Origin: Methanobacteriota archaeon | GTDB taxonomy: Archaea > Hydrothermarchaeota > Hydrothermarchaeia > Hydrothermarchaeales > BMS3B | Reading direction: 5' to 3' | DNA: 42,314 nucleotides | NCBI GenBank assembly: GCA_013152685.1 | Contig: JAADFX010000121.1 | Location: forward strand, 1-42,314 | Part shown: positions 3,020 to 24,475 of the stretch, piece by piece | Numbering within the stretch: the first letter of the stretch is position 1 | Layout: each line of letters starts with the position of its first letter | Position numbers and translations under genes: made by a program | The notes under the pieces: generated by a model | Seen by the model: only the letters and a program-made list of their open reading frames with translations | Database searches by the model: none | Told to the model about the DNA's origin: nothing

Positions 3020-3227
3020 ATAAGCCTTCCAACTTTTACCGTTGTAACACTATTTGAAAAATTTTCAACTGCCCGGCAAAGCCGGAGATGCGGCTGAAGG
3101 GCATATCCGGTGCGCTGGCAGCTGCGGCAAAATCTACAGGCTAAAATCAAAAAACAGCAGATATTCTTCTTCTATTTCTGGAAATTCTCCGTGAACACCT
3201 TTGCCGGCACGGCACCATATTTATGGA

Positions 3228-3297
3228 AAATTTTATATATCAAATTTAATTTTAATTATATTGGGAACCATGGTCCTTGTGGATTTAAAAATTTTCA
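3228..3297 (+). promoter_or_regulatory. AT-rich promoter region of the giant cytochrome gene (ttttatatat 3231-3240; atttaaaaatttt 3283-3295)
   Basis: Two TATA-like elements in an otherwise GC-rich context, 50-115 nt upstream of ATG 3348. Confidence 0.4.
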
Positions 3298-3347
3298 ACA
3301 GGTGTGGCAGTGTGAGCTCAGCTCCTGCTTTTCGGCCTTCCGGGGGT

Positions 3348-6300
3348 ATGGGGAGGGCAACTCCAGCAGGTCTGCTCATCATCCTTCTCATCGCCCTTGC
3401 GCTTTTTTCAGGTGTGGCCGCCCAGGAGGCGGTGCTCCAGCTCAACGTCTCCAGGTATGTGGTGCTGGACGAGCCCAGGACCAACAGCAACGCCGGCGCC
3501 GGCTTCAGCGTCCCATCGCGGGACTGGGGCACCGACGACTGGCGCGGCGAGGCCACCACAATAAGGGCGTATGCCATTATAACCAACGCCTCGGGCGGCG
3601 TGCCCGGCGTGACCGTCACCTTTACAATAAGGAACCCCGCCGGAGCGGCGGTGGCAACCCTCAGCGCCGTGACCAACTCCGCTGGGGTTGCGGTGGTCTC
3701 CTACAACCTGAACAACGTCTACTACTATGGAGGGTGGAGCATTGAGGCGAGCGCCACCGTCGGTGGAAGTAGCCTCAGCGCCAGCCAGAGCTTCATATAC
3801 AACTGGTGGGGGTGCGCCAACTGCCACGGCTGGGAGAACTTGGGGGAGATTGGTACCTTCTCGCAGAAGTCGCCCTACACCATGGGCTACGACTTCCACA
3901 GGAATCCAAACGCCGGTGAGCACTCCACCGCCATGAAGAACGGGCAGTGCGTGGTGTGCCACCAGAGCTACGACAACGCCTGGCACAGCGGAAGCAACCC
4001 TCCCGCGCCCGAGTATCCCGGGGGGATACACGACAACAAGCAGCGCTGCCAGGACTGCCACACCAACGCAGACACCGGCAACAAGCGCGCTGAGATTGCC
4101 GGCTGCTACGACACCGCTGGCTGCCATCCCCAGCAGAATCCGAAGCTGACCCAGGTTCCCACAACCACCGGCTACAGCGTGGGCGGGAACTACAGAAGCA
4201 TCTACAGCCTGGACACCACCACCGGTGAGCCCAGGAAGGCCCACACTCCGGCGGAGACTGTGCCATGCCTCAACTGCCACAACCCCGCTCACATGCTCTC
4301 AAAGCCCGTGGTCAACGGCACCACCAACACCTACACCGAGGATGCGCAGTGCGCCACCTGCCACGTGGGCAGGGGCAGGCACTCCACCTACAACCCCGTG
4401 TACTGCACTGCCTGCCACAGCCAAGACGCCCACAGGGTGGGGATACTCAACGGAAGCGCCTCCACCCAGCCCAGCTACGTCCAGCTGGGCTCTCCCGGAG
4501 CAGTGACAAAGAACTCCTGCCCGGACTGCCACAGCGCTGGCGCGGTGGCGGGCTTCTTCAACAACCTGAGCAGCTACGACAGCGCCGCCTACAACAGGAG
4601 CTACCAGCCCCAGGTTGACAGGTTCGGCTACTCCATAGCGCCCCACAACCAGAGCGTCCCCTGCCTGCTCTGCCACGACAACACCGACTTCCACAGCATC
4701 ACCTTCCTGAACAGCACCGCCGGCTACACCACCGACAGGAGCCGGGCAGTCGGCTGTGAGGACTGCCACGTGCCCGGGGTGAACGACACCGTCAAGAGCT
4801 TTGTGCAGGGCAGGGGCTACTCACCGCCCCAGGTGGATGAGAGGCACAACAATGCCGTGCCCTGCGACGTGTGCCACTCACCCAGCCCACACGGTGGCGC
4901 GCGCTTTCTTGAGAAGAACCTCTCCTCCTACACCACAAACCGCAGCGTCTCCGCCTTCTGCCAGGACTGCCACGTGGGTGGAGGCGCATCGGGAAGGAGC
5001 TTTGTCACGAGAAGCGGAAACTACACCCTGAACCCGCCCCAGGTGGAGGCCAGGCACAACAATGCCGTGCCCTGTGAGGTGTGCCACTCCACCAACCCCC
5101 ACGGCGGCGCCTGGTTCCTGACTCCGGGGCTCTCGGGCTACACCGCCAACCGGAGCGGCGCCGTCACCTGCAAAGACTGCCACACCAACGCCAGCGCGGG
5201 CGGGAGTGTGTTCTCCACCCGGAGCGGGAGCTACACCCTCAACCCGCCCTTCATCGGCAGCTATGCGCTGCAGCACGGCAATGAAACCTGGGAGGGACAG
5301 AACTGGGGCAGCTACTGGAATAAATCGGACGACAACTCCGCCTGTCTTTACTGCCACGACAGCGGGAGCAGCACTGAGGCGCTGCACGCGAGCAGCGCGA
5401 GGGGCAATGTGAGCAGCGTCGCCGACGGCGCCCTGGACATGACTGGCAACTGGTGCGCCAACTGCCACGTCTCTGGCGGCTTCAACCCGCAGTACAACGG
5501 CACCGCCTACTCACCCTCTCCTCCCCTCGCTGATGTGCAGAGCGCTGCCGGCAACAGCGCCGGCAGGAGCTGGTTCAACCACACCTACCTCGTAAGCTCC
5601 AACTACACCGACAGCCTGTGCTACACCTGCCACGCCAGAAGCGACGAGACGCCGGGCAACAACCTCACCCTTTTTGTCCACAACGTGGAGGAGAGCAACG
5701 GCGGCGCCGACTGCGTGAGGTGCCACGCCGTGGGCGCACCTGCGCCGAAGCATGTGGATGTGGGTGCCTTCAAGCGGAGTGTTCACGCGGGTCTGAACTC
5801 CAATGCGACCAACACCACCCGGCTCACCGATGCCGTCGCCAAGGCGTGCTGGGCGTGCCACGGCGACGGGAGTGAGCCAAAGGAGCACCCCTCCAACTAC
5901 AAGGCGCCGAAGCTCTGCGTGGACTGCCACCTGAGCGGCGCCTTTGGTGCTCCCGTTGTGGAGGAGCACTATCTCAACGGCACTGAGATTGTCGCCTCCA
6001 CGGGCGCGAGCTCCGCCCTGGGAAGCTGCCTGAACTGCCACCAGAACCAGGGGATACCCGAGCTCAGGGTGAGCGGCGTGAACGACCCCGACTACGGCAG
6101 CTTCGACGCCGACGGGGACGGCACCTCGGGCGGCAACCTCAGCGCCTACCACTACGCCTCAATTTCATCCTCCCTCATCAGCGGCGGAAGCGCAAACTGC
6201 GCCTACTGCCACCAGCAGAACAGCAGCTTCGATGCTGTTATGCAGGACGTGAGCCACAATGCGATGCTCAACCACACCGACAACTCCCCCGCGCCCACCT

Positions 6301-8408
6301 GCACAGACTGCCACGGCACCGGGAGAATGCACGACTCCACCCTGAGAAAGCCGGTGCTTACCTCCACGAACAACACCCTGTGCATGAGCTGCCACACGGC
6401 GAAGCAGCTCCACAACAGCGCTGGCAACAGGGCGAGGAACGAGACGGTTTACTGCGTCACCTGCCATACGGGGGATGTGAACACCGTCAGGGTGAGGGAC
6501 ATCCACGGAATCAAGTACCTCAACACCTCGGGGAGCTTTGAGGTGTGGGGCACCTCCTCTCCGGCGCTGTGCGTAACCTGCCACCGTAGCAATCCAGGAG
6601 GGAAGTTTGCCAACGCCTCCAGGGTTCCGCCCCTGAGGCACAGCGACGACCCCATCGCTGGCGGGAAGTGGAACAGGAGCTCCGCCACCTACTGGACCCC
6701 CGGGGATGAGCAGAGCGCCTGCAGCTTCTGCCACGGGGACAGCAGGCACAGCGCAAATGCGCTGGGCAACGCCTCTGCCGTGGAGGCGGGGCAGGTGAGG
6801 AACGCCACCGACCTCAGCACCACCTCCTGGTGTGCCGGCTGCCACTTCTCCCAGGCGGCGAACTACAACGGCACCGCCTACTCGCCCAAGGTGGTGAACC
6901 TCTCTGCCTGGGGCCTGAGCAATGCCACCGATGGCACAGCCTACAGGGACCACGTGGCGAGAGGATACATCTCCTCCAGCAGCTACAGCGATGCGGTTTG
7001 CCGCAAGTGCCACGGTGCCCTTGTCGGCTCCACGACCACCTCGGCGGAGTTTGTGCACAGCGTTGCTGAGGGCGTTGCCGGGGGCAACAACTGCATCTCC
7101 TGCCACGACATAGGCGAGCTCGCCTGGGATGTGGACTTCAACGCCACCGAGGACGCAGACGCAGCCCACAGGAATCTGAACAGCAACGCCGTTACCAGCC
7201 TGCCAGCGCAGAACAAGAAGTGCTGGGCGTGCCACGGCGACGGGAGTGAGCCGCCGCCGGGAGACCACCCCTCCGGCTACAACACCCCCAAGCTGTGTGG
7301 CGACTGCCACTTCAGCGGCGCCTTCGGAGCCCCTCTGGTTAAGGAGCACCACAGGAGCGGCGAGGATGTGAAGGTCACGGGTGCCGACTGCTGGAACTGC
7401 CACAGCCTCAAGGAGAACCAGGTTAGCAACCTGGACACCGAGAAGCCCTACCACTACACCAGTGTGGACGACAACAAGAGCTACGCCTCCCACTACGTGA
7501 AGGTCAGGAAGGACCTTAAAGCCAGGCAGGACGAGAGCTACTGCGGCTACTGCCACCAGCAGCAGAAGGGCGGCACCACCAGCAGCGCCTACAACCGGTT
7601 CTTCAGCAACACCAACAGAACCACAATGCCGGACCACAGCTCAAGGATGCGGCGCTACTACGTGCCCTGCTTCAAGTGCCACAACAGCATCAACAACCTC
7701 CACGCCCAGAGCCTGACGGTGCCGAACTTCACAAGCTTTGACTCGGAGTGCAGAACCTGCCACATCCCCGTAACCCGGGGCAACACCCATGTGAGCGGCA
7801 TGGGGTGCAGGCTGTGCCACGTGGGCACCACCAACAGGGTGCACAATGTGAGCTACCTGACGGAGAGCGGAACCTACGTGCCAGCGAAGCAGGCGAAGAG
7901 GGAGTACAGCTACGCCAAGTGCTACAACTGCCACGTTAACAGCTCCCTGGATGCGCTGATGGGCAGCTACGGCTACAGCAGCGTGGTCAAGGTGCCCTGG
8001 GCGGGCCACGGCGACGGCACGGCGGGAGGAACAACCTACTGGAGCGACAACTACACCGCCTGCGTCTTCTGCCACGCCTCGGAGCACAATGAGAACCTCC
8101 CCATAGGGTATGCGGTGCGCCTCGCCGGCATAAGGAGCGGCGACTACCCCGCCAGGATCAACGCAACCATAGCCTCGGGTAGCACCACCTGGTGCGGTTC
8201 CTGCCACATAGCGAGCGACACCGACTATAGCCTGGTGGTTAACTACTACTTTGCCAGAATCTACGGCAAGAAGCCGCCGGCTATAACGCCAGGCACAGGG
8301 AACCACTCCACGCTTGCAGCTCCCTACACCGACGACAAGTGCGCCACCTGCCACTACAGCGGTAGCGCCAGCGATGGAATGGACGCCTTCATGCACAAAA
8401 TCAGATAA
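3348..8408 (+). CDS. Giant secreted multihaem c-type cytochrome (~1,686 aa, about 40 CxxCH motifs) with an N-terminal Ig-like domain
   Basis: 40 CxxCH motifs by manual count (CANCH, CVVCH, CQDCH ... CGSCH, CATCH). Start moved from the track's TTG 3201 to ATG 3348, which gives the signal peptide MGRATPAGLLIILLIALALFSGVAAQE. An Ig-like beta segment (VTVTFTIRNPAGAAVATLSAVTNSAGVAVVSY) precedes the first haem motif. No C-terminal TM segment. Confidence 0.9.
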   Translation: MGRATPAGLLIILLIALALFSGVAAQEAVLQLNVSRYVVLDEPRTNSNAGAGFSVPSRDWGTDDWRGEATTIRAYAIITNASGGVPGVTVTFTIRNPAGAAVATLSAVTNSAGVAVVSYNLNNVYYYGGWSIEASATVGGSSLSASQSFIYNWWGCANCHGWENLGEIGTFSQKSPYTMGYDFHRNPNAGEHSTAMKNGQCVVCHQSYDNAWHSGSNPPAPEYPGGIHDNKQRCQDCHTNADTGNKRAEIAGCYDTAGCHPQQNPKLTQVPTTTGYSVGGNYRSIYSLDTTTGEPRKAHTPAETVPCLNCHNPAHMLSKPVVNGTTNTYTEDAQCATCHVGRGRHSTYNPVYCTACHSQDAHRVGILNGSASTQPSYVQLGSPGAVTKNSCPDCHSAGAVAGFFNNLSSYDSAAYNRSYQPQVDRFGYSIAPHNQSVPCLLCHDNTDFHSITFLNSTAGYTTDRSRAVGCEDCHVPGVNDTVKSFVQGRGYSPPQVDERHNNAVPCDVCHSPSPHGGARFLEKNLSSYTTNRSVSAFCQDCHVGGGASGRSFVTRSGNYTLNPPQVEARHNNAVPCEVCHSTNPHGGAWFLTPGLSGYTANRSGAVTCKDCHTNASAGGSVFSTRSGSYTLNPPFIGSYALQHGNETWEGQNWGSYWNKSDDNSACLYCHDSGSSTEALHASSARGNVSSVADGALDMTGNWCANCHVSGGFNPQYNGTAYSPSPPLADVQSAAGNSAGRSWFNHTYLVSSNYTDSLCYTCHARSDETPGNNLTLFVHNVEESNGGADCVRCHAVGAPAPKHVDVGAFKRSVHAGLNSNATNTTRLTDAVAKACWACHGDGSEPKEHPSNYKAPKLCVDCHLSGAFGAPVVEEHYLNGTEIVASTGASSALGSCLNCHQNQGIPELRVSGVNDPDYGSFDADGDGTSGGNLSAYHYASISSSLISGGSANCAYCHQQNSSFDAVMQDVSHNAMLNHTDNSPAPTCTDCHGTGRMHDSTLRKPVLTSTNNTLCMSCHTAKQLHNSAGNRARNETVYCVTCHTGDVNTVRVRDIHGIKYLNTSGSFEVWGTSSPALCVTCHRSNPGGKFANASRVPPLRHSDDPIAGGKWNRSSATYWTPGDEQSACSFCHGDSRHSANALGNASAVEAGQVRNATDLSTTSWCAGCHFSQAANYNGTAYSPKVVNLSAWGLSNATDGTAYRDHVARGYISSSSYSDAVCRKCHGALVGSTTTSAEFVHSVAEGVAGGNNCISCHDIGELAWDVDFNATEDADAAHRNLNSNAVTSLPAQNKKCWACHGDGSEPPPGDHPSGYNTPKLCGDCHFSGAFGAPLVKEHHRSGEDVKVTGADCWNCHSLKENQVSNLDTEKPYHYTSVDDNKSYASHYVKVRKDLKARQDESYCGYCHQQQKGGTTSSAYNRFFSNTNRTTMPDHSSRMRRYYVPCFKCHNSINNLHAQSLTVPNFTSFDSECRTCHIPVTRGNTHVSGMGCRLCHVGTTNRVHNVSYLTESGTYVPAKQAKREYSYAKCYNCHVNSSLDALMGSYGYSSVVKVPWAGHGDGTAGGTTYWSDNYTACVFCHASEHNENLPIGYAVRLAGIRSGDYPARINATIASGSTTWCGSCHIASDTDYSLVVNYYFARIYGKKPPAITPGTGNHSTLAAPYTDDKCATCHYSGSASDGMDAFMHKIR
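4605..5243 (+). repeat. Three tandem copies of a ~70-aa di-haem unit inside the giant cytochrome
   Basis: Units start at 4605 (diverged, 73 aa), 4824 and 5034; the last two are exactly 210 nt apart. They read PPQVDERHNNAVPCDVCHSPSPHGGARFL...FCQDCH...SGNYTLN versus PPQVEARHNNAVPCEVCHSTNPHGGAWFL...TCKDCH...SGSYTLN. They share the nucleotide run aggcacaacaatgccgtgccctg. Confidence 0.75.
5343..8405 (+). repeat. About 2.25 copies of a ~450-aa super-repeat carrying 12 CxxCH motifs each (units 5343-6719, 6720-8060, partial 8061-8405)
   Basis: Unit starts: SACLYCH / SACSFCH / TACVFCH. Matching landmarks appear in order: NWCANCH/SWCAGCH/TWCGSCH; YNGTAYSP in units 1 and 2; KACWACHGDGSEPKEHPSNYKAPKLCVDCHLSGAFGAPVVEEH versus KKCWACHGDGSEPPPGDHPSGYNTPKLCGDCHFSGAFGAPLVKEH; CLNCHQNQ...AYHYAS...CAYCHQQN versus CWNCHSLKENQ...PYHYTS...CGYCHQQQ. 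Confidence 0.65.
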
Positions 8409-8435
8409 ATTAAAAAAATTTAAGAAATGTTCAAG

Positions 8436-8448
8436 AATATTTTAAATT
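8436..8448 (+). promoter_or_regulatory. TATA-like element (aatattttaaatt) upstream of the first tetrahaem gene
   Basis: AT-rich spacer 8409-8484; the element is centred ~43 nt upstream of ATG 8485. Confidence 0.35.
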
Positions 8449-8484
8449 GATAGGCTGGAGTGAGATAAATAGGGAGAAAGCGAA

Positions 8485-9108
8485 ATGAGATTGACACTCT
8501 TCGCCCTGGGGCTGGTGGCACTGACCTTTCTGGTAATGCCTCAGGCAGTGGCGAAGTTCACAGGGCAGCATCAGTTCGTCAACGGCAGCAGTGTGAACTG
8601 CGGGAAGTGCCATCCCGACATAGTGTCGGAGTACAACAGCGATCCGAACCAGCCCCACAGGTCGATCAACCTGGCCTGCATAGACTGCCACATAGGCACC
8701 ACGGACCCCCTGCTGGGAAGGGTGAAGTGGAGTGAGGTGTACACCCTCACGGGAGAGGAATACTACAAGGGTATAGAGTTCCACGGGGCTGCGCTGGTGG
8801 AGTGCCTGTGGTGCCATGTAAACAATACTTATATAACCGCGGGGGCGGATGTTAATGCAGAATTTAACAACTCTCAGGTGGAGGCTCACCGCCCCCTGTT
8901 CTGGCGGGCAAAGAACGCCTCCGGCTACGATTCCCCGGACCTCCTCAGGGGGGCCAATGAGGCCTGCATAGCCTGTCACACCCACGCTGCGAATGTGACG
9001 ATAATAGAGCCGGTTCAGTACCTGAACATCACCGCCAACTACACGGAGTGCACCGCCGGGGCAAACTGCTACAGCGGATGGGACATATCCCTGGAGGTAA
9101 ACAGGTGA
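8485..9108 (+). CDS. Tetrahaem c-type cytochrome, secreted (paralog 1)
   Basis: Signal peptide MRLTLFALGLVALTFLVMPQAVA/KF. Four CxxCH motifs (CGKCH, CIDCH, CLWCH, CIACH). Several N-x-S/T sequons. Confidence 0.9.
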   Translation: MRLTLFALGLVALTFLVMPQAVAKFTGQHQFVNGSSVNCGKCHPDIVSEYNSDPNQPHRSINLACIDCHIGTTDPLLGRVKWSEVYTLTGEEYYKGIEFHGAALVECLWCHVNNTYITAGADVNAEFNNSQVEAHRPLFWRAKNASGYDSPDLLRGANEACIACHTHAANVTIIEPVQYLNITANYTECTAGANCYSGWDISLEVNR

Positions 9109-9123
9109 GGTTATGGTAATAGA

Positions 9124-9167
9124 AAAATATTTAAATAATGTGGAAAAAATTATAAAATAGGAGGTGA
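9124..9167 (+). promoter_or_regulatory. TATA-like elements plus strong Shine-Dalgarno (GGAGGTGA 9160-9167) of the second tetrahaem gene
   Basis: aaatatttaaataa and aattataaaatagg are followed by ggaggtga 6 nt before ATG 9174. Confidence 0.45.
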
Positions 9168-9173
9168 AAACAC

Positions 9174-9851
9174 ATGAGGAAACTCTTGCTGGTGCTCGGC
9201 CTGGTTGCAGTGGTCTTCCTAGTGATGCCCAGTGCCATGGCGAAGTTCACAGGGCAGCACAAGTTCGTCAACGGCAGCAGCGTGGACTGCGAGCGGTGCC
9301 ACACCACAATAAGCACGGAGCTCCACGCCGGAAATGCCCACAACTGGAGCCAGTCCACCATCGGAACCTCCCCGTGCAGAGTGTGCCACATCCCCAACAA
9401 TGCCAGGGCCAGCGACCCGTACTACAACCCCTATAGAAGCGGCACCGGTACCTACCACGCAGCGGCGATGGTTGAGTGTCTTTACTGCCACGGCATCAGG
9501 AACGGCACAACCACCGACAACGGCGGTCTCACGATACCTGCGGCAAATGTGACGGCGGAGTTTGAGAACAGCAACATTGAGGCACATAGACCGCTGTACT
9601 ACAGGGCAAAGAACGCTTCCGGTCTGGATACCTCCGACCACCTGCAGGGAGCAAACGAGGCTTGCATAGCCTGCCACACCTACGCTGCGAATGTGACGAT
9701 AATAGAGCCCACCCAGTACCTGAACATCACAGCGACGGCGACCAACTGCACTGGCTGGTATCCGGGATTCACTGGCACAGCCGACCCCAACTGCTACAAC
9801 GACGGCTACAGCTTCAACTGGAGCATAACAATTGAAATCAACAGGCCGTAA
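9174..9851 (+). CDS. Tetrahaem c-type cytochrome, secreted (paralog 2)
   Basis: Signal peptide MRKLLLVLGLVAVVFLVMPSAMA/KF. Four CxxCH motifs (CERCH, CRVCH, CLYCH, CIACH). Collinear with 8485..9108 (AKFTGQH.FVNGSSV.C..CH ... GANEACIACHT.AANVTIIEP.QYLNITA). Confidence 0.9.
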   Translation: MRKLLLVLGLVAVVFLVMPSAMAKFTGQHKFVNGSSVDCERCHTTISTELHAGNAHNWSQSTIGTSPCRVCHIPNNARASDPYYNPYRSGTGTYHAAAMVECLYCHGIRNGTTTDNGGLTIPAANVTAEFENSNIEAHRPLYYRAKNASGLDTSDHLQGANEACIACHTYAANVTIIEPTQYLNITATATNCTGWYPGFTGTADPNCYNDGYSFNWSITIEINRP

Positions 9852-9871
9852 AGCTTGAATCCTTACACTTC

Positions 9872-9893
9872 CCTTTTTATTTTTATTTTTTTA
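9872..9893 (+). terminator. Oligo-T tracts (ccctttttatttttattttttt), archaeal-type intrinsic termination signal
   Basis: Three consecutive T-runs start 21 nt after stop 9851. Archaeal RNAP is known to terminate at oligo-T. Confidence 0.45.
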
Positions 9894-9933
9894 ATATTGA
9901 ATTCAAAAATTTTATATTTGAGAATTTTGCAAG

Positions 9934-9956
9934 TTATATTTAAAAATTTTTAAATG
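9934..9956 (+). promoter_or_regulatory. TATA-like element (ttatatttaaaaattttt) for the signal peptidase gene
   Basis: Lies 20-45 nt upstream of ATG 9977. The short or absent leader is the pattern seen at other genes here. Confidence 0.35.
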
Positions 9957-9976
9957 TTATTCTGCTCTCCTCGGGT

Positions 9977-10717: not shown

Positions 10718-10778
10718 GATTTTTATCAATAATAGTTGACCGGCAATAAAATGTTATTTAAAGACAATAAAAAAAATA

Positions 10779-10786
10779 TTTATATA
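10779..10786 (+). promoter_or_regulatory. TATA box (tttatata)
   Basis: Sits ~30 nt upstream of ATG 10816, implying a nearly leaderless transcript. Confidence 0.4.
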
Positions 10787-10815
10787 CGTTAGTCCGTAAA
10801 CTATTGGTGATAAGA

Positions 10816-11943: not shown

Positions 11944-11951
11944 GCGATTGC

Positions 11952-13026: not shown

Positions 13027-13030
13027 TTCC

Positions 13031-14695
13031 ATGAGAGCCGATGTGGTGTTCGCCGCAGCAGTTATGTTCCTGCTCACCCTCCCGGTGGTCTTCTCCGCCG
13101 GCGAAGCCGTGATAGTCTCCGAGGTCGAGGGGCTGGGCGAGTACACTGAGGTGGAGAACCCCGTTTACATGCCCGGGGAGACGGTGAAGCTCTACATTGA
13201 GGCGGAGGACGTAAACCACGCGGGCTTTGTTGCTGTGAACTTCTACATTGTGATCTACAACAGCCGGTTTGAGATAAAGGATGTGCTCCCCTACACCGTA
13301 AGGTACAGGCGCTACCTGAGGGATGTGTACATAACCCCCGAGTTCAAAATTCCGGAGCACTGGGAGGAGGGAAAGTACTACATAAAAATCCACGCCTTCG
13401 ATGTGGCCGATGAGGATAAAGTCAGGAGGATGTACGCGCGGGCTCTGGACTGGTTCAATCCCGACTACGGTGCTGCCAAGTCCTTTACCGACCAGCCGGA
13501 GGGCGTCAACGTCGGGGGCTACTCCGGGTATCTGAAGAGCGAGAGCTCCGCCAGGGCAATTCTGACCAGGACGCTTAGCTTCACAGTGGTCAAGAGGAAG
13601 CAGGTGGTGGAGGAGGGGGCGCCGGAGAGGGAGATAGAGTACTACCCGGTGAACATCACCTACCACCTGGACTCCCAGCGGCTGAGCGCCCCGAAGTTTA
13701 TCTCCCAGAAGCCCTTCACCTTCAACTTTACCCTCTCCAGGGGCATCCACGGCGGCGTCGTTGCCCTGGACTACTTCTTCCTGATAACCAACAGGGATAA
13801 TGAGCCCATCTACTACTCCATGTCCCGGGAGAGGTACATAAAGTACCCGGGCAACTCCATCTCCCACACCTTCTCCTACCAGCTGCCCGAGGGAGAGTAC
13901 TACCTGCTGGTGAAGATCTACGACAGGGCCAATCCAGAGCCCCTCCGGAGCTTCATCCGCAGCCTCAGCGGCTATGCCGAGGAGTACGACATCAGGAAGA
14001 TTGACGCCTACCGGCGCATAAAGGAGGGCAGGGATGTGGACGATGTGCCCTACTCCACCCTGGGGATCCTGAAGCCCTCAACAGAAGAGAACCTGGTTTA
14101 CTTTGCCAAGATACCCTTCGAGGTGGTGACTGAGCTCAGGAAGGAGCGCCTCACAGTTCCGGTCATAAGGTACCTCTCCCTGGAGCCCAGCGAATTCATT
14201 ATAAACATCTCACAGCCCTTCTCCGTGAAGGTCAGGTTCAAGAACATTGGCAAGGAGGGCACCGTGGACATACTCATGGACATAAGGGGCGAGAGGCGGG
14301 GCTATCGCCTGAGGCAGACGGTGTTCGCGGAGCCGGGTGTGGAGAAGACGGTGGTCTTCAACGTCACCCTGCCGCTTACCGAGGGTCCGTGGAAGATATC
14401 AATTGTGAACTCCACCCTAAGCGAGGTGGTGCTGGTCCAGAGGCCTGAGGTGATTGAAAAGTTCGAGGCAAACCTGACGGAAGAGGAGGAGCTCTTTGCC
14501 CCGGTGGAGGTGGAGAAGCCGAAGACTCCCCTGGTAATAATCCTGCTTCTGGTGGTCGCCCTGGTGGCCCTGATGCTCATCCTCAGGAGGAGGTACGGCG
14601 GCGAGGTGCCCCAGGAGTTCGCCCTGCCCATAAAGATAACCCTTCTGCTCCAGCTCGCCCTGCTGGCGCTCTACCTCCTGTACATGTATAAATAA
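13031..14695 (+). CDS. Secreted Ig/CARDB-like repeat protein with C-terminal TM segments; hypothetical surface protein
   Basis: Signal peptide MRADVVFAAAVMFLLTLPVVFSA. Recurring EGKYYIKIHAFD / EGEYYLLVKIYD modules. CARDB-like ISQPFSVKVRFKNIGKEGTVDILMDI...VVFNVTLPL. TM PLVIILLLVVALVALMLILRRR and a second hydrophobic tail. Confidence 0.75.
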   Translation: MRADVVFAAAVMFLLTLPVVFSAGEAVIVSEVEGLGEYTEVENPVYMPGETVKLYIEAEDVNHAGFVAVNFYIVIYNSRFEIKDVLPYTVRYRRYLRDVYITPEFKIPEHWEEGKYYIKIHAFDVADEDKVRRMYARALDWFNPDYGAAKSFTDQPEGVNVGGYSGYLKSESSARAILTRTLSFTVVKRKQVVEEGAPEREIEYYPVNITYHLDSQRLSAPKFISQKPFTFNFTLSRGIHGGVVALDYFFLITNRDNEPIYYSMSRERYIKYPGNSISHTFSYQLPEGEYYLLVKIYDRANPEPLRSFIRSLSGYAEEYDIRKIDAYRRIKEGRDVDDVPYSTLGILKPSTEENLVYFAKIPFEVVTELRKERLTVPVIRYLSLEPSEFIINISQPFSVKVRFKNIGKEGTVDILMDIRGERRGYRLRQTVFAEPGVEKTVVFNVTLPLTEGPWKISIVNSTLSEVVLVQRPEVIEKFEANLTEEEELFAPVEVEKPKTPLVIILLLVVALVALMLILRRRYGGEVPQEFALPIKITLLLQLALLALYLLYMYK

Positions 14696-14733
14696 AATTT
14701 AATGTTATTGTTAAAATTTTGAAATAAGGTGAA

Positions 14734-17700
14734 ATGCGGGCCTGCTCTGCGCTTTTGCTGATTCTCCTCCTGGTCGGGGTGGTTAGGGCGGATGTGATAC
14801 AGGTTACCAGCTCCTCCGGGTGCGTCGCCGCCAACGCCACCTTCTCTGACCCCGGGGAGGCTGTTTTAAACTCCGGCGCCAACGATACCATCATCCTCTG
14901 CCCGGGTGTCTATGAGCTGTCCTCCCTCACCATCGACAAGCCCCTGAAGATAGCCGGCCACCTGCGCGGCACCGCGGTGCTGAACCTCTCCACCCCCGGC
15001 TACAGCAACCGGATCAGCATTCTTGCCGACGGCGTCGAGCTCAGGAACCTGACAGTTGTCTCGGGCGGGGTGAATGTGTACGCCCTCTACATAAGGGGCA
15101 GAAACATAACCGTTGAGGATGTGGCGGTGGAGGATGGCTTCTGGTACGGCTTCTACATAGTCTCCTCCCGAAATGTGGTGCTCAAGAGGGTGAGGGTTCG
15201 CAACATGGCTGAGGCAGCCCTCGAGGTGCGCGACACCACCGGGCTGATTCTGGAGGACTCCACCCTGGTGAGGGAGAGCAGCACCTCCAGCCAGTACACC
15301 GGCAGGTACGTGGCGCTTTACAATGTCTCCGGCTCCACCATAAGGAACAACAGCATCTTCGGCGTCGTGAGGGACAGGAGTGACGGCTACGACTCGGGTT
15401 TTGCCATATACCTGAACTCCTCCTCGGGGAACACAGTGGCAGGCAACTTCGTGCGTAGGGTGTCCTACTGCATATTTTTTGACGACCCCTCCTCCGGCAA
15501 CATCTTTTACAACAACTACTTTGAGTGCGGCACACCTCCCTGCCGGGACAACCTGGGCGGTGTGAACCACTACAACACCAGCAGGAGAGCGGGCCTCAAC
15601 ATCGTGGGCGGCGGCACCCTGCAGGGCAACTACTGGGGCGGCCTGCTGCCCTACAGCGGTAGCGACCTGGACGGCGATGGCATCGGCGACACCCAGCTTC
15701 CCTACAACGCCACGAAGCCCCAGGACGGCGTCACCTACATCCTGGGGGGCGGCGACTGGGGGCCGCTGATAAAGCAGCGGGAGACCTCGCCGCCGGTGGT
15801 GGTGTCTGTGAACCTCCTCCCTGACCAGGAGGTCGCCACCTGCACCGACCTCAACCTGACTGTCACCTCCTACGCCGAGAGGATAGAGGCGTGCACCCTC
15901 GAGCTGGATGGCAGGCAGCTGCCGATGAACGTCTCCGGCGGGAGCTACATATACTACTGCAGCTACCGCCTCTGCCCTGCCGACTTCTCCGGGGGCTACC
16001 TCCCCTACAGGGTGACGGTCAGGGACTCGGCAAACAACACGGCGGATTCAGGCTACAGGGGCCTGCTTGTAAACGCCTCTCCGGCGCTCATTCTAATACA
16101 CTCCCCGCGGGATGGTGCCGCCTACAACGTGAGCACCCTGCCCCTGGAGGTGGGAGCCAGCGACGGAGTTTCCCAGTGGACTTACTCCCTGGATGGCGGG
16201 GCGAACACCAGCTTCACCCCCAACACCACCATCACCGCCGGGGAGGGCTCCCACCTGCTGGAGGTGTATGCGAGGGACTCCGCGGGTTACCTCATATACC
16301 GGAACTCCAGCTTCACCGTTGACCTGACGCCACCCTCCATAAGCCTCACCTCCCCACTGAACGGCTCCATCTACACCACCCGGAATGTCACCCTCAACGG
16401 CACCTCGACGGAGGAGGTCAGCTGGAGCTATGTGCTGAACGGGAGGTCGGGCTACCCCTCGGGATTGCCCGCCAGCCTGAGCGCCGATGAGGGGGCGAAC
16501 CGCCTGCTCGTCAGGGCTGTTGACAGGGCCGGGAATGCCGCCGTCGCAGAGGTCAGCTTTACGGTGGACACATCTCCGCCCACCGCAGCCTCCTCCGCCG
16601 GCAGCAGCGTCAGGGTGGACGTCAACTCCTCCTACAACCTCTCCTGGAGGCTTTACGACAACCTCGCCGGCGGCTACTACAGGCTGCTGCTCAACGGCAG
16701 CCCGCTGGTGGACTGGCGCCCCTGGAGCAACGCCACCGCCGTGGAGGCTGCCGTGGACACCTCACGGCTGGTGGAGTACGTCTACACCCTTGAGTTCAAC
16801 GACTCCGCAGGCTGGCTGGCGGTGAGCCGCGTTGTGGTGGATGTCATCGACCCCAGCCCCCCGGTGATAAACATCACCTCCCCTGCTGACGGTGCCCTTT
16901 ACAGCACAGCTCAACTTCTCATCAACGCCACCGCAGACAGGGCGGTTCACACCTGGCTGTGGAGCCTCAACGGGAGCCAGAATCAGAGCTTCACCCCGCC
17001 GGCCGTGGTAAACCTGACCTCCGACGGCACGTATGTGCTGGACATCTGGGCGAACTCCACCTCTGGGGCGATGGGACACGCGTCGGTGTCCTTCAGCGTG
17101 GACACCACCCCGCCGGCGGTGGTTATAGCATCTCCGGCGAATGCCACCTACGCGGACACAAGAGTCCCCCTGCGGGTGAGCGCCGGGGAGCGGGTATTAA
17201 ACTGGAGCTACCGGCTGAATGGCGGTCCGGAGGTGGGCTTCACGCCAAACACCACGATTGCCGCGGCGGCGGGACAGAACCACCTGGTGGTGTACGCGCT
17301 GGACAGCGCCGGCAACAGGGGCAGTGCGTCGGTCTACTTTACCGTCTCACCCCCCTCCCCGTCCCCCGGTGGCGGCGGAGGCGGGGGGGCGAAGCAGAGC
17401 ACCAGGAGGCTGCAGCTCGTCCTGAAGGATGCGGAGGCCGGCGGGTATACCAGGCTTGAGGTGGAGAGGTGGAACATATCGGAGGTGCTGGTGAAGCCAC
17501 GCCACACCGTATATTACGGGGAGCTGGTGCTGGAGCTTCTGGAAGCCCCTCCGGAGGCTGAGCTTGAGGGGGAGGTGTACCTGAGCTTCAGGCTTGTGAC
17601 CCGGCCGGGCATGCTGGAGGAAGCCAGGATACGCTTCGGCGTTGACGAGGTCTGGCTCAGGCGTCTGAACCTGTCCCCGGAGGACGTGGGAGCGCTTTAC

Positions 17701-18096
17701 CTTACGTCAGAGGGCTGGAAGGAGGTAGCTGTCAGGAGGGCGGGTGTGCTCAACGGGACCCTGCTGTACGAGCTTGTGCTTCACGAGCCCGGGCGGTATG
17801 CTGTGGTTGCCTCGCCGCCCATTGCTGGAGCCGACCGCCTCGTGGATGAGGAGAAGCCCGAGTGGAGGTTCATCCCTCCCGGCACCGGAGCCGCGGGCGG
17901 TGGAGCGGGGGAGGTGAAGGAGGAGCCCGGGGTTTCAGCTCCTTCGCCCCCATCACCCGCGCCGGAGAACGGCAGGTCTGCGGGGTCCCCGCAGGAGGAG
18001 AGGGGTGGAATATGCGGTCCCACCCTTCTGCTTCTAGTCTCCCTTGTCCCGCTGCTCGGCGCCAGGCTTCTGCGTCAGCCTCAGCCTGCCGAGTAG
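14734..18096 (+). CDS. Large surface protein: right-handed beta-helix (NosD/PbH1-like), multiple Ig-like repeats, PGF-pre-PGF-like domain, C-terminal TM anchor
   Basis: Signal peptide MRACSALLLILLLVGVVRA. Beta-helix turns (NNSIFG, GNTVAGNFV, NIFYNNYF) and DLDGDGIGDTQLPY. Repeated ~95-aa modules (...SPRDGAAYNVSTLPLEV...WTYSLDGGANTSFTPNTTI...; ...SPADGALYSTAQLLINA...WLWSLNGSQNQSFTPPAVV...; ...SPANATYADTRVPLRV...WSYRLNGGPEVGFTPNTTI...). Gly7 linker. C-terminal GGICGPTLLLLVSLVPLLGARLLRQ. Confidence 0.85.
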   Translation: MRACSALLLILLLVGVVRADVIQVTSSSGCVAANATFSDPGEAVLNSGANDTIILCPGVYELSSLTIDKPLKIAGHLRGTAVLNLSTPGYSNRISILADGVELRNLTVVSGGVNVYALYIRGRNITVEDVAVEDGFWYGFYIVSSRNVVLKRVRVRNMAEAALEVRDTTGLILEDSTLVRESSTSSQYTGRYVALYNVSGSTIRNNSIFGVVRDRSDGYDSGFAIYLNSSSGNTVAGNFVRRVSYCIFFDDPSSGNIFYNNYFECGTPPCRDNLGGVNHYNTSRRAGLNIVGGGTLQGNYWGGLLPYSGSDLDGDGIGDTQLPYNATKPQDGVTYILGGGDWGPLIKQRETSPPVVVSVNLLPDQEVATCTDLNLTVTSYAERIEACTLELDGRQLPMNVSGGSYIYYCSYRLCPADFSGGYLPYRVTVRDSANNTADSGYRGLLVNASPALILIHSPRDGAAYNVSTLPLEVGASDGVSQWTYSLDGGANTSFTPNTTITAGEGSHLLEVYARDSAGYLIYRNSSFTVDLTPPSISLTSPLNGSIYTTRNVTLNGTSTEEVSWSYVLNGRSGYPSGLPASLSADEGANRLLVRAVDRAGNAAVAEVSFTVDTSPPTAASSAGSSVRVDVNSSYNLSWRLYDNLAGGYYRLLLNGSPLVDWRPWSNATAVEAAVDTSRLVEYVYTLEFNDSAGWLAVSRVVVDVIDPSPPVINITSPADGALYSTAQLLINATADRAVHTWLWSLNGSQNQSFTPPAVVNLTSDGTYVLDIWANSTSGAMGHASVSFSVDTTPPAVVIASPANATYADTRVPLRVSAGERVLNWSYRLNGGPEVGFTPNTTIAAAAGQNHLVVYALDSAGNRGSASVYFTVSPPSPSPGGGGGGGAKQSTRRLQLVLKDAEAGGYTRLEVERWNISEVLVKPRHTVYYGELVLELLEAPPEAELEGEVYLSFRLVTRPGMLEEARIRFGVDEVWLRRLNLSPEDVGALYLTSEGWKEVAVRRAGVLNGTLLYELVLHEPGRYAVVASPPIAGADRLVDEEKPEWRFIPPGTGAAGGGAGEVKEEPGVSAPSPPSPAPENGRSAGSPQEERGGICGPTLLLLVSLVPLLGARLLRQPQPAE

Positions 18097-18666
18097 CGCT
18101 CTGAGGAAGCTCCTGCTGCCCCTCCCGTTGGTGGCATACACCTTCTCAGCGCCCGAGCTGAATACGGTGCCCAGGCAGCTCTCACAGAAGAGCAGCGACT
18201 TTCTGTCTATCTCATCCACGGTGCTGGAGAACTTCATGTTGCACTCGCTGTTCTCGCAGTGCACCATGCCCAGGGTGTGCCCCAGCTCATGCAGCGCCTC
18301 CTTGAGCAGCCTCTCCAGGAACAGCTCCCTCTCCCATTCCCGGCCGTGCCGGGCATCCCGGAGTCGGAAGGGGGATATAACCGCCCACCTGCCCCCCAGC
18401 GCCGCAAGGCCGAAGATGTAGTCAACCCCCGCGACGGTGATGTCCCTGTCTATCACGGCGAGCACCCTCTCCGCCGCGGTGGGGCGTGAGGCCAGGGTGT
18501 CCAGGAGGTGGTCTGCCAGCACCTGCCCCCTGGAGTTGAAGCGGAGGGGCACCTCCACCGGAGGCGAAACCACAACCTCACCGAAGAACTCGGCCAGCCT
18601 GTCCCTGAGGTACCGCAGCCACTCGTCCTCAACGCAGCCAATGGGTAGTATCTCGAGCACCGTCAC
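18034..18666 (-). CDS. amzA: Archaemetzincin (peptidase M54)
   Basis: HELGHTLGMVHCENSECNMKFSSTVDEIDRKSLLFCESC matches the archaemetzincin signature HExxHxxGxxxCxxxxCxM...CxxC. Typical N-terminus MTVLEILPIG. The 3' tail overlaps the convergent 14734..18096 gene by 63 nt. Confidence 0.85.
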   Translation of the reverse strand: MTVLEILPIGCVEDEWLRYLRDRLAEFFGEVVVSPPVEVPLRFNSRGQVLADHLLDTLASRPTAAERVLAVIDRDITVAGVDYIFGLAALGGRWAVISPFRLRDARHGREWERELFLERLLKEALHELGHTLGMVHCENSECNMKFSSTVDEIDRKSLLFCESCLGTVFSSGAEKVYATNGRGSRSFLRALLGRLRLTQKPGAEQRDKGD

Positions 18667-18689
18667 AGATATACTCTATCTGCTTCACG

Positions 18690-18712
18690 ATTTAAAAATT
18701 TTTTTATATAAG
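18690..18712. promoter_or_regulatory. Shared AT-rich bidirectional promoter (tttaaaaatttttttatata) between amzA and the beta-helix/CWB2 gene
   Basis: Lies 24-44 nt from ATG 18666(-) and 20-40 nt from ATG 18731(+). Both transcripts would be (nearly) leaderless. Confidence 0.4.
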
Positions 18713-18730
18713 CTTGGAAAATATTTATCC

Positions 18731-20590
18731 ATGAGACACCTCCCCCTGCTCCTGCTGCTGCTCCTATCCCTTCCGGCGGCATTTCCGGCGACGGTGTGTC
18801 CCACGGGGTGCGACTACTCCTCCCTCCAGGAGGCGGTTTCCTCTGCCGCGGAGGGGGAGGTTATACTGGTGAAGGGGGGCAGCTATTCTGTCAATCTGGT
18901 GATAAACAGGAGCCTGACGGTGGTGGGCGAGGGCGGTGTGCTCCTCACGCCGGGAGATAGCAGGCTACCTGTGGTGTACGTGGTGTCCTCCGCCAACGTC
19001 ACCCTCAGGGGGCTGGGCATCGACGGCGCAGGACAGAGCTGCGTGGAGGTGGAGCTGTCACGCGGCGTGAGGCTTGAGGAGCTTGAGCTGAGGTCCTGCC
19101 TCTACGGGCTGAGGGTATCCGACTCCTCGAGGCTCGAGGCGGGGGCGCTTACGGTGGAGGGCGCCTCCTTTGGCGTTGAGGTTCAGAACACCACGGGGGT
19201 GAGGCTCGAGGGGCTCACCCTCAGGTCCCCGACTGTGGCGGGGGTAATCCTCTCCGGTAGCAGCGGCTGCTACCTGGGGAAGAGCAGCATACTCCCTGCT
19301 GGAGCTGCCGGCGGTCTCTATCTTCAGAATTCGGACAGCTGCACCATCTCCGAGGTGCTGGTGAGCGGCGGCGGCACGGCGGTTTCGCTTGACGGCTCCT
19401 CCGGGAACACCCTGAGGGGCATCAGGATAGCAGACTCCTCCACCGGCTTTGAGCTTTCAGGCTCCAGGGACAACACCATAACGGGCAGCTCTGTTTCGAG
19501 TGCCGGCGTCGCCGTGTACCTCAAAAACTCCCGGGGGAACCTGCTCTACGGGAACGACTTCACCTCCGGTGGTCCCCAGGCGGTGGTGGACGATAACCCG
19601 AACCTGTGGAACAGCAGCACCGGCAACTACTGGCGGGACTACGGGGGCAGGGACGCGGATGGCGATGGCTTTGGGGATGTGCCCTACGTTATAAACTCCC
19701 TGAATGTGGACCACCTGCCTGTGGTGAGGCCCTTCTTCGCCTTAGCCACCTCCTCGCCGCCCCCGCCTGCGGGGGGAGGCGCCGGGAAGAGGAGGGACCC
19801 CCTGGCTGCGGGCGAGTTTTTCAGGCTGGATGAGGAGCTTCTACTCAGCATACTGGACTACTTCGACGTCAGGGGTAGGGTGTACTCGGTATCCCCGGCT
19901 GCGGGCGCCGCCCTCCTCGCCATCAGAGACAGGAGTCTGTTTCCTGTGACGGGCGCCGGGGAGGTGGACTCCAGGCTGGGCGCTCCCGCGGAGTGGTCGG
20001 GCGGGGACTACAGCCTGGTTGTGGAGGAGGTGGGCAGCTCCTTCACCTTCTCGGAGGACGTGGTGGTGGCGCGGGGGGACATAGGCGCTGATGCGGTATC
20101 TGCGATAGCCTACGCCAGGGCGAGGAGGATACCCCTGCTCCTGGTGGAGCCCGGGCGCACCCCGGCCGAGGTGAGGGGGCTGATTGAGCGGCTGGGCGTC
20201 CGGAGGGTGGTGATAGTGGGCGGACCACGGGCGGTTTCCCCGGCTGTGGAGCGGGAGCTCGCCTCCCTGGCTGAGGTTGTCCGCATATACGGCGAAACCC
20301 GGGTGGAGACCTCCATCAGAATGGCGCAGGCGCTGGAAGGTGTCCGCGGCACCCCGAGGCTGCTGCTGGTGCAGGACGGCTGGCGCACTTCTCCCGGGGC
20401 TGCGATACTCTCCGCCCTGTATGAGGCTCCAGTGCTCTACGTGAGGGGCGACGAGCTCCCACCCTCTCTCGAGGAGTACCTAAAGGAGCTCTCGGGCAGG
20501 GGTGTGGCGGTGGTTTTTGCGGGGGTTTCCCCACCGGTGGAGTCGGCGGTGAGGGAGATACTCAAAGGTCAGAGAAGCCCCACTCCCTGA
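18731..20590 (+). CDS. Secreted beta-helix (NosD-like) protein with C-terminal cell-wall-binding-repeat-2 (CWB2)-like domain
   Basis: Start moved from the track's 18437 (which would overlap amzA antisense) to ATG 18731, giving MRHLPLLLLLLLSLPAAFPA. Beta-helix repeats and DADGDGFGDVPYV. The C-terminal half has CWB2-like motifs (RIPLLLV, VVIVGGPRAVSPAVE, RIYGETRVETSIRMAQ, APVLYV). Confidence 0.8.
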   Translation: MRHLPLLLLLLLSLPAAFPATVCPTGCDYSSLQEAVSSAAEGEVILVKGGSYSVNLVINRSLTVVGEGGVLLTPGDSRLPVVYVVSSANVTLRGLGIDGAGQSCVEVELSRGVRLEELELRSCLYGLRVSDSSRLEAGALTVEGASFGVEVQNTTGVRLEGLTLRSPTVAGVILSGSSGCYLGKSSILPAGAAGGLYLQNSDSCTISEVLVSGGGTAVSLDGSSGNTLRGIRIADSSTGFELSGSRDNTITGSSVSSAGVAVYLKNSRGNLLYGNDFTSGGPQAVVDDNPNLWNSSTGNYWRDYGGRDADGDGFGDVPYVINSLNVDHLPVVRPFFALATSSPPPPAGGGAGKRRDPLAAGEFFRLDEELLLSILDYFDVRGRVYSVSPAAGAALLAIRDRSLFPVTGAGEVDSRLGAPAEWSGGDYSLVVEEVGSSFTFSEDVVVARGDIGADAVSAIAYARARRIPLLLVEPGRTPAEVRGLIERLGVRRVVIVGGPRAVSPAVERELASLAEVVRIYGETRVETSIRMAQALEGVRGTPRLLLVQDGWRTSPGAAILSALYEAPVLYVRGDELPPSLEEYLKELSGRGVAVVFAGVSPPVESAVREILKGQRSPTP

Positions 20591-24417: not shown

Positions 24418-24443
24418 TCTTCCACCGGACCTCGGAGACCAGC

Positions 24444-24475
24444 TTTTATATTTAATTACCAAGGTCAATATAAAA
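24444..24475. promoter_or_regulatory. Bidirectional promoter: perfect 9-nt inverted repeat of TATA-like elements (ttttatatt 24444-24452 / aatataaaa 24467-24475)
   Basis: The only AT-rich stretch in the 67-nt spacer between ATG 24417(-) and ATG 24485(+). The distances fit short or absent leaders on both sides. Confidence 0.45.

Follow-up and report, generated by a model that had tools for sequence, protein, structure and literature searches.

A probable extracellular electron-transfer island in Hydrothermarchaeota, arranged around a conserved cassette of AvECN-type cytochrome genes

Introduction

In the account of Baquero 2023 given in PMC12954529, AvECN, a cytochrome of Archaeoglobus veneficus, forms filaments. 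MmcX, an ECN homologue from the Methanocellales archaeon Met12, is among the most highly expressed genes of that organism and is electro-active in Shewanella (PMC11176372), and small 4-haem multihaem cytochromes (MHCs) are among the top transcripts of ANME-1 (PMC9012536). A second element was described by Chadwick et al. 2022, who noted, within cytochrome clusters from ANME, Syntrophoarchaeum, Geoglobus, and Ferroglobus, a signal peptidase together with an unannotated "8x TMH" protein (PMC9012536). They reported no homologues elsewhere and proposed a role in MHC maturation, with the membrane protein possibly handling haem (PMC9012536). For metagenome-assembled genomes (MAGs) of Hydrothermarchaeota, MHCs and a possible role in extracellular electron transfer have been reported previously (Carr 2019; Kato 2019), and the MHCs of the JdFR members carry up to 67 haem motifs (Kato 2019). 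Here, we compare with these systems a cytochrome-rich region at 3.2 to 20.6 kb of a Hydrothermarchaeota contig (JAADFX010000121.1; 42,314 bp, ~62% GC), the whole of which we call the window.

We consider it probable that the region from 3348 to 20590 is an extracellular electron-transfer island arranged around a conserved gene cassette (8485 to 14695), and that it operates by the mechanism proposed in the Discussion. The evidence comes from the homology of two tetrahaem cytochromes to the AvECN filament subunit and from the recurrence of their neighbours across archaeal phyla.

Results

Two tetrahaem cytochromes of the AvECN family

The core of the cassette consists of two ECN genes together with genes for an S26 signal peptidase, a protein with six transmembrane (TM) segments (the 6-TM protein), a pentahaem cytochrome that carries an anchor, and p554, whose 554 amino acids include a TM anchor. 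The genes of this interval are as follows.

8485-9108, plus strand: ecnA, AvECN-family tetrahaem cytochrome, 207 amino acids; match to 8E5G, four CxxCH motifs, predicted cleavage between AVA and KFTGQH
9174-9851, plus strand: ecnB, paralogous AvECN-family tetrahaem cytochrome, 225 amino acids; match to 8E5G, TATA-like box upstream at 9130, T-rich tract after the stop codon
9977-10717, plus strand: dedicated signal peptidase I (S26, archaeal/ER-type), with TM segments at both termini; Pfam S26 and TIGR02228 matches
10816-11943, plus strand: rare 6-TM membrane protein, described from homologue alignment, fusions, and gene linkage
11952-12632, plus strand: pentahaem c-type cytochrome; signal peptide, hydrophobic C-terminal anchor, five CxxCH motifs and five conserved His
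12577-13026, plus strand: small secreted or lipoprotein-like protein; lipobox-like AAGC seen by eye, start uncertain (overlaps the pentahaem gene)
13031-14695, plus strand: p554, secreted, with C-terminal TM segment(s); beta-strand-rich by eye

Searched against PDB sequences, EcnA has a single significant match, 8E5G (E = 2.5e-10, residues 2-195). The same entry is the sole significant match of EcnB (E = 1.5e-7, nearly full length), which is 58% identical to EcnA. With a profile of 31 family sequences the match to 8E5G reaches E = 1e-32 and covers positions 4-204 of 210, the next PDB match being NrfA at 2.7e-5; neither OmcS (E = 0.56) nor the Pyrobaculum filament is significant. As controls, the 40-haem and pentahaem cytochromes of the region match nothing in the PDB, and the match to 8E5G is therefore not an artefact of shared CxxCH motifs. 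By alignment, EcnA and EcnB are full-length homologues of the AvECN filament subunit of A. veneficus (PDB 8E5G). The four CxxCH motifs are invariant across the 31 aligned sequences, as are H29, H58, H100, and H135. These four extra histidines would suffice for bis-His ligation of four haems, and their alignment with 8E5G suggests that they serve as the distal ligands there. The segment around the predicted cleavage site, which lies between (V/L)MPxA(V/M)A and KF(T/S)GQH, is unusually conserved, with P19, F25, Q28, and H29 invariant.

Because they are specific, full-length homologues of the filament-forming AvECN, EcnA and EcnB are likely to be the long-range wire of the island, with homology pointing to polymerisation. 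The first-pass annotation had instead seen small shuttles in the tetrahaem proteins, a role that the full-length alignment makes less likely. In its complete form, this alternative holds that the tetrahaem proteins are soluble pseudo-periplasmic shuttles, that the 40-haem protein is the long-distance wire, and that the peptidase is a spare general enzyme. Pfam assigns the tetrahaem proteins only generic cytochrome c7/c3-type similarity, as shuttles might show, and Chadwick et al. regarded small MHCs as intermediates between membrane and S-layer (PMC9012536). The specific relation to a solved filament subunit speaks against this arrangement, as do the distribution of the 40-haem protein and the linkage of the peptidase described below, and we judge it unlikely.

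The 40-haem cytochrome

Upstream of ecnA lie the following two features.

3225-3347, plus strand: AT-rich, promoter-like stretch with the leader of the 40-haem gene; TATA-like box TTTATATA at 3232-3239, GGGGGT just 5' of ATG 3348
3348-8408, plus strand: secreted 40-haem c-type cytochrome, 1686 amino acids; 40 CxxCH motifs, signal peptide, PF22113 match

The most likely start of this gene is ATG 3348 (MGRATPAG..., which opens a predicted signal peptide), in a reading frame open from 3201. Small revisions apply to the coordinates given before: the former start at 3228 falls in promoter-like AT-rich DNA, and the last gene starts at 18731 rather than 18437. The protein contains 87 His and 46 N-glycosylation sequons. 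Its N-terminus is a non-haem beta-sandwich, with an MG2 match that stays below threshold in the Pfam and NCBIfam scans. The MtrC/MtrF II-IV domain (PF22113) is matched in six stretches at 154 bits. Whole-protein family models score far under their cutoffs (TIGR03508, 82.7 versus 192), and the resemblance to MtrC/OmcA-type cytochromes thus appears only at the level of modules. Pfam and NCBIfam scans found no S-layer domain, and there is no C-terminal anchor, the end (...DAFMHKIR) not being hydrophobic. Internal repeats occupy residues 391-634, as three units of ~70 amino acids, and the stretch 603-977 matches 1070-1431; the protein has grown through internal duplication.

With its MtrC/MtrF-like pentahaem modules, the protein could span tens of nanometres, which would suit a long-distance wire of the kind that the shuttle alternative requires and that the first-pass annotation had proposed. 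The comparison among fetched loci argues otherwise. Homologues occur only in Hydrothermarchaeota-type MAGs and in one Archaeoglobi MAG, so that the protein accompanies the cassette in only two or three lineages, and the large MHC directly upstream of the ECN genes carries 26, 31, or 40 haems (loci L011 and L035 and the window, respectively). From this distribution, the 40-haem protein appears to be a lineage-variable accessory to the cassette.

Conservation of the cassette across archaea

All island proteins were compared in a synteny set of 77 loci with ECN family members, taken from species-representative genomes; hidden Markov model searches of the fetched loci added no cassette members to those found by BLAST. 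The genes recur on one strand in the order ECN, S26 peptidase, (cytochrome), 6-TM, and p554-like, with the pentahaem gene nearby. This cassette is found in Hydrothermarchaeota, ANME-1, GoM-Arc1, other Methanosarcinales, and five Thermoplasmata/Methanomassiliicoccales MAGs, and a comparison with Methanoperedens, which had been suggested from the sequence at the outset, recovered it in eight genomes of that type. Loci from Thermoplasmata lack the pentahaem and p554-like genes. An Archaeoglobus locus has peptidase, pentahaem, and p554-like genes but no 6-TM gene, and in a Syntrophoarchaeum locus (L062) the peptidase alone is present.

In 25 of 59 genomes, the peptidase and 6-TM genes adjoin an ECN gene as a pair, and many of the remaining loci are truncated or are paralogue sites. 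Counted by locus, the S26 gene adjoins ECN genes in 30 fetched loci, and the 6-TM gene adjoins the S26 gene in every locus that contains it (27 of 27), the two overlapping by 4 bp in three MAGs. In loci of ANME-1, ANME-2d, GoM-Arc1, and other Methanosarcinales, the homologues of the two window genes lie side by side. In two ANME-1 loci (L059 and L067), the order is ECN, peptidase, 6-TM, and pentahaem, followed by CcmF, which carries the motif WGGYWAWD (17862-19817 in L059 and 17197-19155 in L067). Cassette and haem lyase are thus physically linked in two ANME-1 genomes and not in Hydrothermarchaeota.

The signal peptidase and its 6-TM neighbour

The signal peptidase, recognised as such from the start, matches Pfam S26 and scores above the cutoff of TIGR02228 (64.3 versus 51.85 bits); its match to the SipW model NF046067 is weak (29.5 bits). 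Across 22 peptidase homologues, no variation occurs in the catalytic Ser/His/Asp motifs S-x-SM-x-PT, HR, and GD...D. A spare general enzyme would fit poorly with the distribution of this gene, since its tie to ECN genes across phyla and its constant association with the 6-TM gene would be unexpected for a housekeeping enzyme.

The 6-TM protein belongs to a rare family, with 62 clusters at E <= 1e-3 among 1.84e9 representative proteins. A coiled-coil loop of ~70 amino acids separates TM2 from TM3. The AlphaFold2 (AF2) model of the protein (pLDDT 53, pTM 0.26) was not used for a fold search. Several relatives are fused to other domains. Those from Thermoplasmata (P0205, P0187, and P0212) carry N-terminal TPR repeats, an acidic linker, and zinc ribbons and have no signal peptide, and P0218 (1483 amino acids) has a signal peptide, a beta-propeller, Ig domains, and a TM helix before its 6-TM module, which is followed by a long K/E-rich repeat tail. 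Both kinds of fusion place the N-terminus of the module in the cytoplasm, and, given six TM segments, the coiled coil between TM2 and TM3 and the C-terminal tail would then lie on that side too (predicted topology N-in/C-in). The tail (window 11560-11800) contains three RNGG motifs. One to three are present in the Hydrothermarchaeota members (P0168-P0180), the distant member P0193 has PRNGGMYRY three times, and RNGG does not occur in the 87,689 residues of the other fetched proteins.

These features bear on the proposal of Chadwick et al. that the pair consists of general MHC maturation factors, with a membrane protein that handles haem like CcmC/CcmF and no specific connection to nanowires. 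The pair adjoins CcmF in ANME-1 loci L059 and L067, and CcmF2 and MHC-B in ANME-2 (PMC9012536). Twenty homologues of the 6-TM protein share a WW pair (WW..I(T/S)x(E/D)), which could be taken in the same sense, along with PI..P and several Tyr. The same 20-sequence alignment contains no conserved His or Cys and no WGxxWxWD (WWD) motif, and neither NCBIfam nor Pfam, which was empty even to E = 10, relates the protein to PF01578. Furthermore, the four fusions put the soluble parts in the cytoplasm, and only very short loops would then face outside, where haem attachment occurs; a role in extracytoplasmic haem handling is therefore unlikely. We consider general maturation quite improbable as an account of the pair and favour the 6-TM protein as a partner or regulator of the dedicated peptidase, or as an assembly platform. 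More tentatively, and with doubts that outweigh our confidence, we suggest that nanowires of the AvECN type have a two-component machine of their own for processing and assembly, made up of peptidase and 6-TM protein, with the pentahaem cytochrome and p554 as base and anchor.

The remaining cassette genes

The anchored pentahaem cytochrome, conserved within the cassette in the fetched loci, is a candidate for the membrane-proximal base cytochrome. For p554, a reading as an Ig/CARDB-type protein did not hold, since Pfam (E up to 10) and NCBIfam give no match; conservation of its N-terminal domain (~150 amino acids) extends to neighbours of the 6-TM gene in Methanoperedens, ANME-1, and GoM-Arc1 and also to Archaeoglobus. 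The small protein between the two had been called a lipoprotein. The lipobox-like AAGC agrees with that name, and family assignment does not add to it, with no match in Pfam (E up to 10) or NCBIfam. Its homologues are found in Hydrothermarchaeota and related MAGs, together with one weak match to a minus-strand open reading frame (ORF) in an ANME-1 locus.

Cytochrome c maturation

Covalent haem attachment requires System I (Ccm) or System II. As the first-pass annotation stated, no such gene is present in the window: scans of ~45 ORFs across the 42 kb gave no match to PF01578 (CcmC/CcmF/CcsA), CcmE, or ResB. Proteins with WGxxWxWD turned up in ANME-1 loci alone. Its expectation that the machinery is encoded elsewhere is supported in two relatives, for which Table S11 of Carr 2019 gives CcmC-type, CcmE, and CcdA/DsbD-like proteins (JdFR-17) and CcmE and CcmF (JdFR-18). 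A search of a protein collection with ANME-1 CcmF was uninformative, with 5962 matches and no named Hydrothermarchaeota among the 120 listed. The location of Ccm genes outside a 42-kb contig is ordinary and matters little. It was an overstatement, however, that the island has no cytochrome maturation genes. Because the peptidase and its membrane neighbour match the maturation pair proposed by Chadwick et al. 2022, the island is not free of candidates.

Haem motifs, source lineage, and base composition

Ten of the 11 genes in the 3.2-20.6 kb region are on the plus strand and the other is on the minus strand. An exact recount of CxxCH motifs reproduced the earlier numbers for its four secreted cytochromes: 40 in ORF 3201-8408, 4 in 8485-9108, 4 in 9174-9851, and 5 in 11952-12632, for a sum of 53. 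Variants of the form Cx3-4CH are absent. A six-frame scan of the window found four further motifs (16833, 38238, 15691 minus, and 6945 minus), each out of frame with real genes. The density is thus ~2e-2 per codon in the four cytochrome genes and ~5e-5 elsewhere, and an enrichment of several hundredfold (~450-fold relative to the out-of-frame background) is not due to chance. With co-directional genes and family scans that confirm most of the inventory, the description of the region as a coherent surface and electron-transfer island is borne out.

The nearest public relative of the tetrahaem gene, at 86% amino-acid identity, is that of Candidatus Pyrohabitans sp. JdFR-17 (Hydrothermarchaeota), whose island has a gene order identical to that of the window. 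An exact search for ecnA among public assemblies had no match. DNA runs that carry part of the sequence are hydrothermal-vent metagenomes (9-18% of sequence words). By these relationships, the source is a Hydrothermarchaeota archaeon close to JdFR-17, from hydrothermal-vent or crustal-fluid metagenomes. The window order also occurs in GCA_027051235.1 and in a 67.8-kb metagenome scaffold, with two extra ORFs between ecnB and the peptidase gene. These ORFs (L001 11942-13570 and L002 11854-13482) encode 265 and 272 amino acids without a Pfam match, and the window has a 125-bp AT-rich spacer in their place.

Recent horizontal transfer was set aside as the reason for a dip in GC content at 9-13 kb. 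GC content at third codon positions (GC3) in the cassette (0.73-0.78) overlaps that of the housekeeping genes SUI1 (0.75) and ScpB (0.78), and the dip is therefore a matter of amino-acid composition.

Transcription signals

The window contains 10 copies of the archaeal TATA-like octamer TTTAWATA, where 0.17 would be expected, at sites that include 1164, 3232, 9130, 9937, 10779, 18703, 32340, and 32361; nearly all of them are 25-120 nt upstream of a start codon. TATA-like octamers stand upstream of the genes for the 40-haem cytochrome, EcnB, the 6-TM protein, and the CWB2 protein described below. The copy at 18703 ends 21 nt before ATG 18731, which suggests that the CWB2 mRNA may be leaderless. 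The genes from 10816 to 18096 are tightly packed, with gaps of at most 38 bp. A sigma-70 promoter and terminator scan was discarded, since this bacterial model does not apply to archaea and its matches only mark AT-rich intergenic DNA.

Surface proteins and flanking genes

Three genes complete the island downstream of the cassette.

14734-18096, plus strand: 1120-amino-acid surface protein with a NosD-like right-handed beta-helix and several Ig-like domains (Pfam and NCBIfam scans)
18034-18666, minus strand: archaemetzincin (M54 zinc metalloprotease); PF07998 at 79 bits, NF033823 at 145 bits with a cutoff of 145
18731-20590, plus strand: 619-amino-acid secreted NosD-like beta-helix protein with C-terminal CWB2 (47.4 bits, cutoff 24.9); TATA-like box at 18703-18710

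The beta-helix and CWB2 surface proteins named by the first-pass annotation were thus recovered, as NosD and Ig-like domains in the first gene and as NosD plus CWB2 in the last. The 1120-amino-acid protein also has a Pro/Gly-rich linker, a C-terminal TM anchor, and 38 N-glycosylation sequons, and it is syntenic only within Hydrothermarchaeota and related MAGs. NCBIfam gave no match for PGF-CTERM or archaeosortase signals on the surface proteins. The archaemetzincin, which had been singled out as an outsider, does belong to family M54, with the HExxHxxGxxH motif HELGHTLGMVHC at ~18291 on the minus strand; it is probably a bystander that is not part of the electron-transfer system. The 3' ends of this gene and the convergent gene for the 1120-amino-acid protein overlap by 63 bp (18034-18096).

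On the other side of the 40-haem gene and divergent from it, a minus-strand gene at 1805-3019 encodes a secreted BNR/sialidase-like beta-propeller with a C-terminal TM anchor. Its position is kept in loci L001-L004, and it may belong to the surface island. Beyond the CWB2 gene, at 20562-24468 on the minus strand, a three-gene unit has two genes for very divergent members of the tubulin/FtsZ superfamily on either side of a gene for a 454-amino-acid coiled-coil protein with N-terminal TM segments. The two superfamily members score 29.4 and 81.6 bits against Pfam Tubulin and 30.7 and 75.4 against TIGR00065, whose cutoff is 295, and are neither FtsZ nor obvious CetZ. Three large secreted or membrane-anchored proteins follow at 24485-29881 (314, 757, and 810 amino acids), with long coiled coils and weak NEW3 or CarboxypepD_reg beta-sandwich matches; the surface-protein region therefore extends past 20590. 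Near the end of the window, a TM-rich ORF of 154 amino acids (41511-41975, plus strand) without a family match has a GC content of 0.37 and a GC3 of 0.32, versus 0.73-0.87 in every other gene, and may represent foreign DNA or a chimeric contig end.

Discussion

We propose the following mechanism for the island. The four cytochromes would be exported by Sec, and haem would be attached on the outer face of the membrane by a System I (Ccm) machinery encoded elsewhere. EcnA and EcnB would then be cleaved between (V/L)MPxA(V/M)A and KF(T/S)GQH by the neighbouring dedicated signal peptidase I, acting with the adjacent 6-TM protein, whose soluble parts would be cytoplasmic. The processed subunits would polymerise into haem-stacked filaments resembling that of A. 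veneficus, and the C-terminally anchored pentahaem cytochrome would feed or drain the filament at the membrane. The 40-haem protein may be an extension specific to some lineages, which would either bridge the envelope or offer a large terminal surface for contact. The beta-helix, Ig, and CWB2 proteins would serve as a surface or adhesion scaffold, with archaemetzincin as a bystander.

Several observations weigh against this proposal. Filament formation by the Hydrothermarchaeota proteins is argued from homology, at ~30% identity to AvECN, and the window proteins are 40-55 amino acids shorter (207 and 225 versus 262). An AF2 model of EcnA built from the 31-sequence alignment was poor (pLDDT 63), and Foldseek found no PDB match for it below E = 4.6; we set this model aside as evidence, since multihaem proteins modelled in the apo form are uninformative. 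For the 6-TM protein, the putative role is drawn solely from gene linkage, and Archaeoglobus locus L068 has the peptidase with no 6-TM gene nearby. Multiple internal TATA-like boxes, the T-rich tract after ecnB, and the packing of the genes make several transcription units likely, in which case the subunit genes may be expressed alone, and no RNA runs were found for the window sequence. Finally, the island contains no quinol oxidase, membrane-carrier-oxidising module, or other electron entry point, so that its earlier description as a complete outer conduit goes beyond the evidence.

The same hardware could also run in reverse and take up electrons from reduced minerals, Fe(II), or a syntrophic partner. 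MmcX restored cathodic uptake rather than anodic export in Shewanella (PMC11176372), and most of the dissolved iron in crustal fluids of Juan de Fuca is in the ferrous state (PMC6759336). Export is the direction thought to be used by the relatives A. veneficus, Geoglobus, and ANME archaea, and no sequence feature fixes the direction. We regard uptake as somewhat unlikely, and as a variant of the proposed mechanism rather than a true alternative to it.

The value of the island is that it shows ECN genes, the peptidase and 6-TM pair, and a large MHC belonging together, and it offers a testable lead on nanowire processing and assembly. A phylum without a cultured member shares a compact gene set with methane- and alkane-oxidising archaea and Thermoplasmata, and with Archaeoglobi in a reduced form. 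The cassette narrows the candidate factors for nanowire processing and assembly to a short list. If the two-component machine suggested above is real, no archaeal cytochrome filament would have had a candidate biogenesis system before this pair, and the 6-TM protein could, through its cytoplasmic domains, link assembly to a signal or partner in the cytoplasm. Hydrothermarchaeota go from bearing MHCs (Carr 2019; Kato 2019) to carrying a nanowire-type cassette, which sharpens predictions on mineral- or partner-linked respiration in the subseafloor crust.

Comparison with known systems

The 40-haem protein resembles the large archaeal MHCs (ANME MHC-A, -B, and -C and those of Geoglobus, Ferroglobus, and JdFR) in being very large and secreted, with tens of CxxCH motifs and heavy predicted N-glycosylation, and like them it is a proposed envelope electron carrier. 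It differs from MHC-A and MHC-B of ANME in the absence of an S-layer domain and a C-terminal TM helix, and from MHC-C in the absence of a pectin-lyase domain. Geobacter OmcS, OmcE, and OmcZ are likewise polymerised multihaem cytochromes for long-range electron transfer, and the maturation of OmcZ requires a dedicated protease. These bacterial nanowires have no detectable sequence relation to the ECN proteins, as the value for OmcS indicates, and belong to diderm bacteria with porin-cytochrome conduits.

The Bacillus subtilis operon tapA-sipW-tasA and the Tafi locus of haloarchaea (TafD peptidase and TafG) likewise encode a secreted fibre subunit next to a dedicated ER/archaeal-type signal peptidase I and to proteins with an accessory or anchoring role (PMC9245690, PMC12337348). 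The likeness is one of operon logic and not of subunit homology: the window subunit is a multihaem cytochrome, not a jelly-roll pilin with donor-strand exchange.

The peptidase and 6-TM genes are probably the pair of Chadwick et al., as matched by description and gene order. Both comprise an archaeal signal peptidase adjoining an unannotated polytopic membrane protein in cytochrome clusters, and the order of peptidase, membrane protein, and CcmF in L059 and L067 agrees with that of BSM_13360, BSM_13380, and BSM_13430. The accounts differ in three respects. We count six TM segments in the window protein rather than the reported eight, the pair extends here to Hydrothermarchaeota and Thermoplasmata/Methanomassiliicoccales, and the fusions suggest cytoplasmic soluble parts, against the proposed haem-handling role. 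In the literature searched, which did not include Baquero et al. 2023 itself, we found no link of this pair to nanowires. What is added to earlier work is its presence in Hydrothermarchaeota and Thermoplasmata and its tie to genes of a filament-forming family.

AvECN and MmcX share with the window proteins four CxxCH motifs and four conserved extra His, a Sec signal peptide followed by (K/L)F(T/L)GQH, and a near full-length alignment. In contrast to AvECN, the window has two tandem paralogues, its host belongs to Hydrothermarchaeota rather than Archaeoglobi, and its proteins are putative filament subunits. The island thus joins known kinds of system, namely the AvECN family, probably the peptidase and TMH pair of Chadwick et al., and the large archaeal MHCs, in a phylum already known for MHCs.

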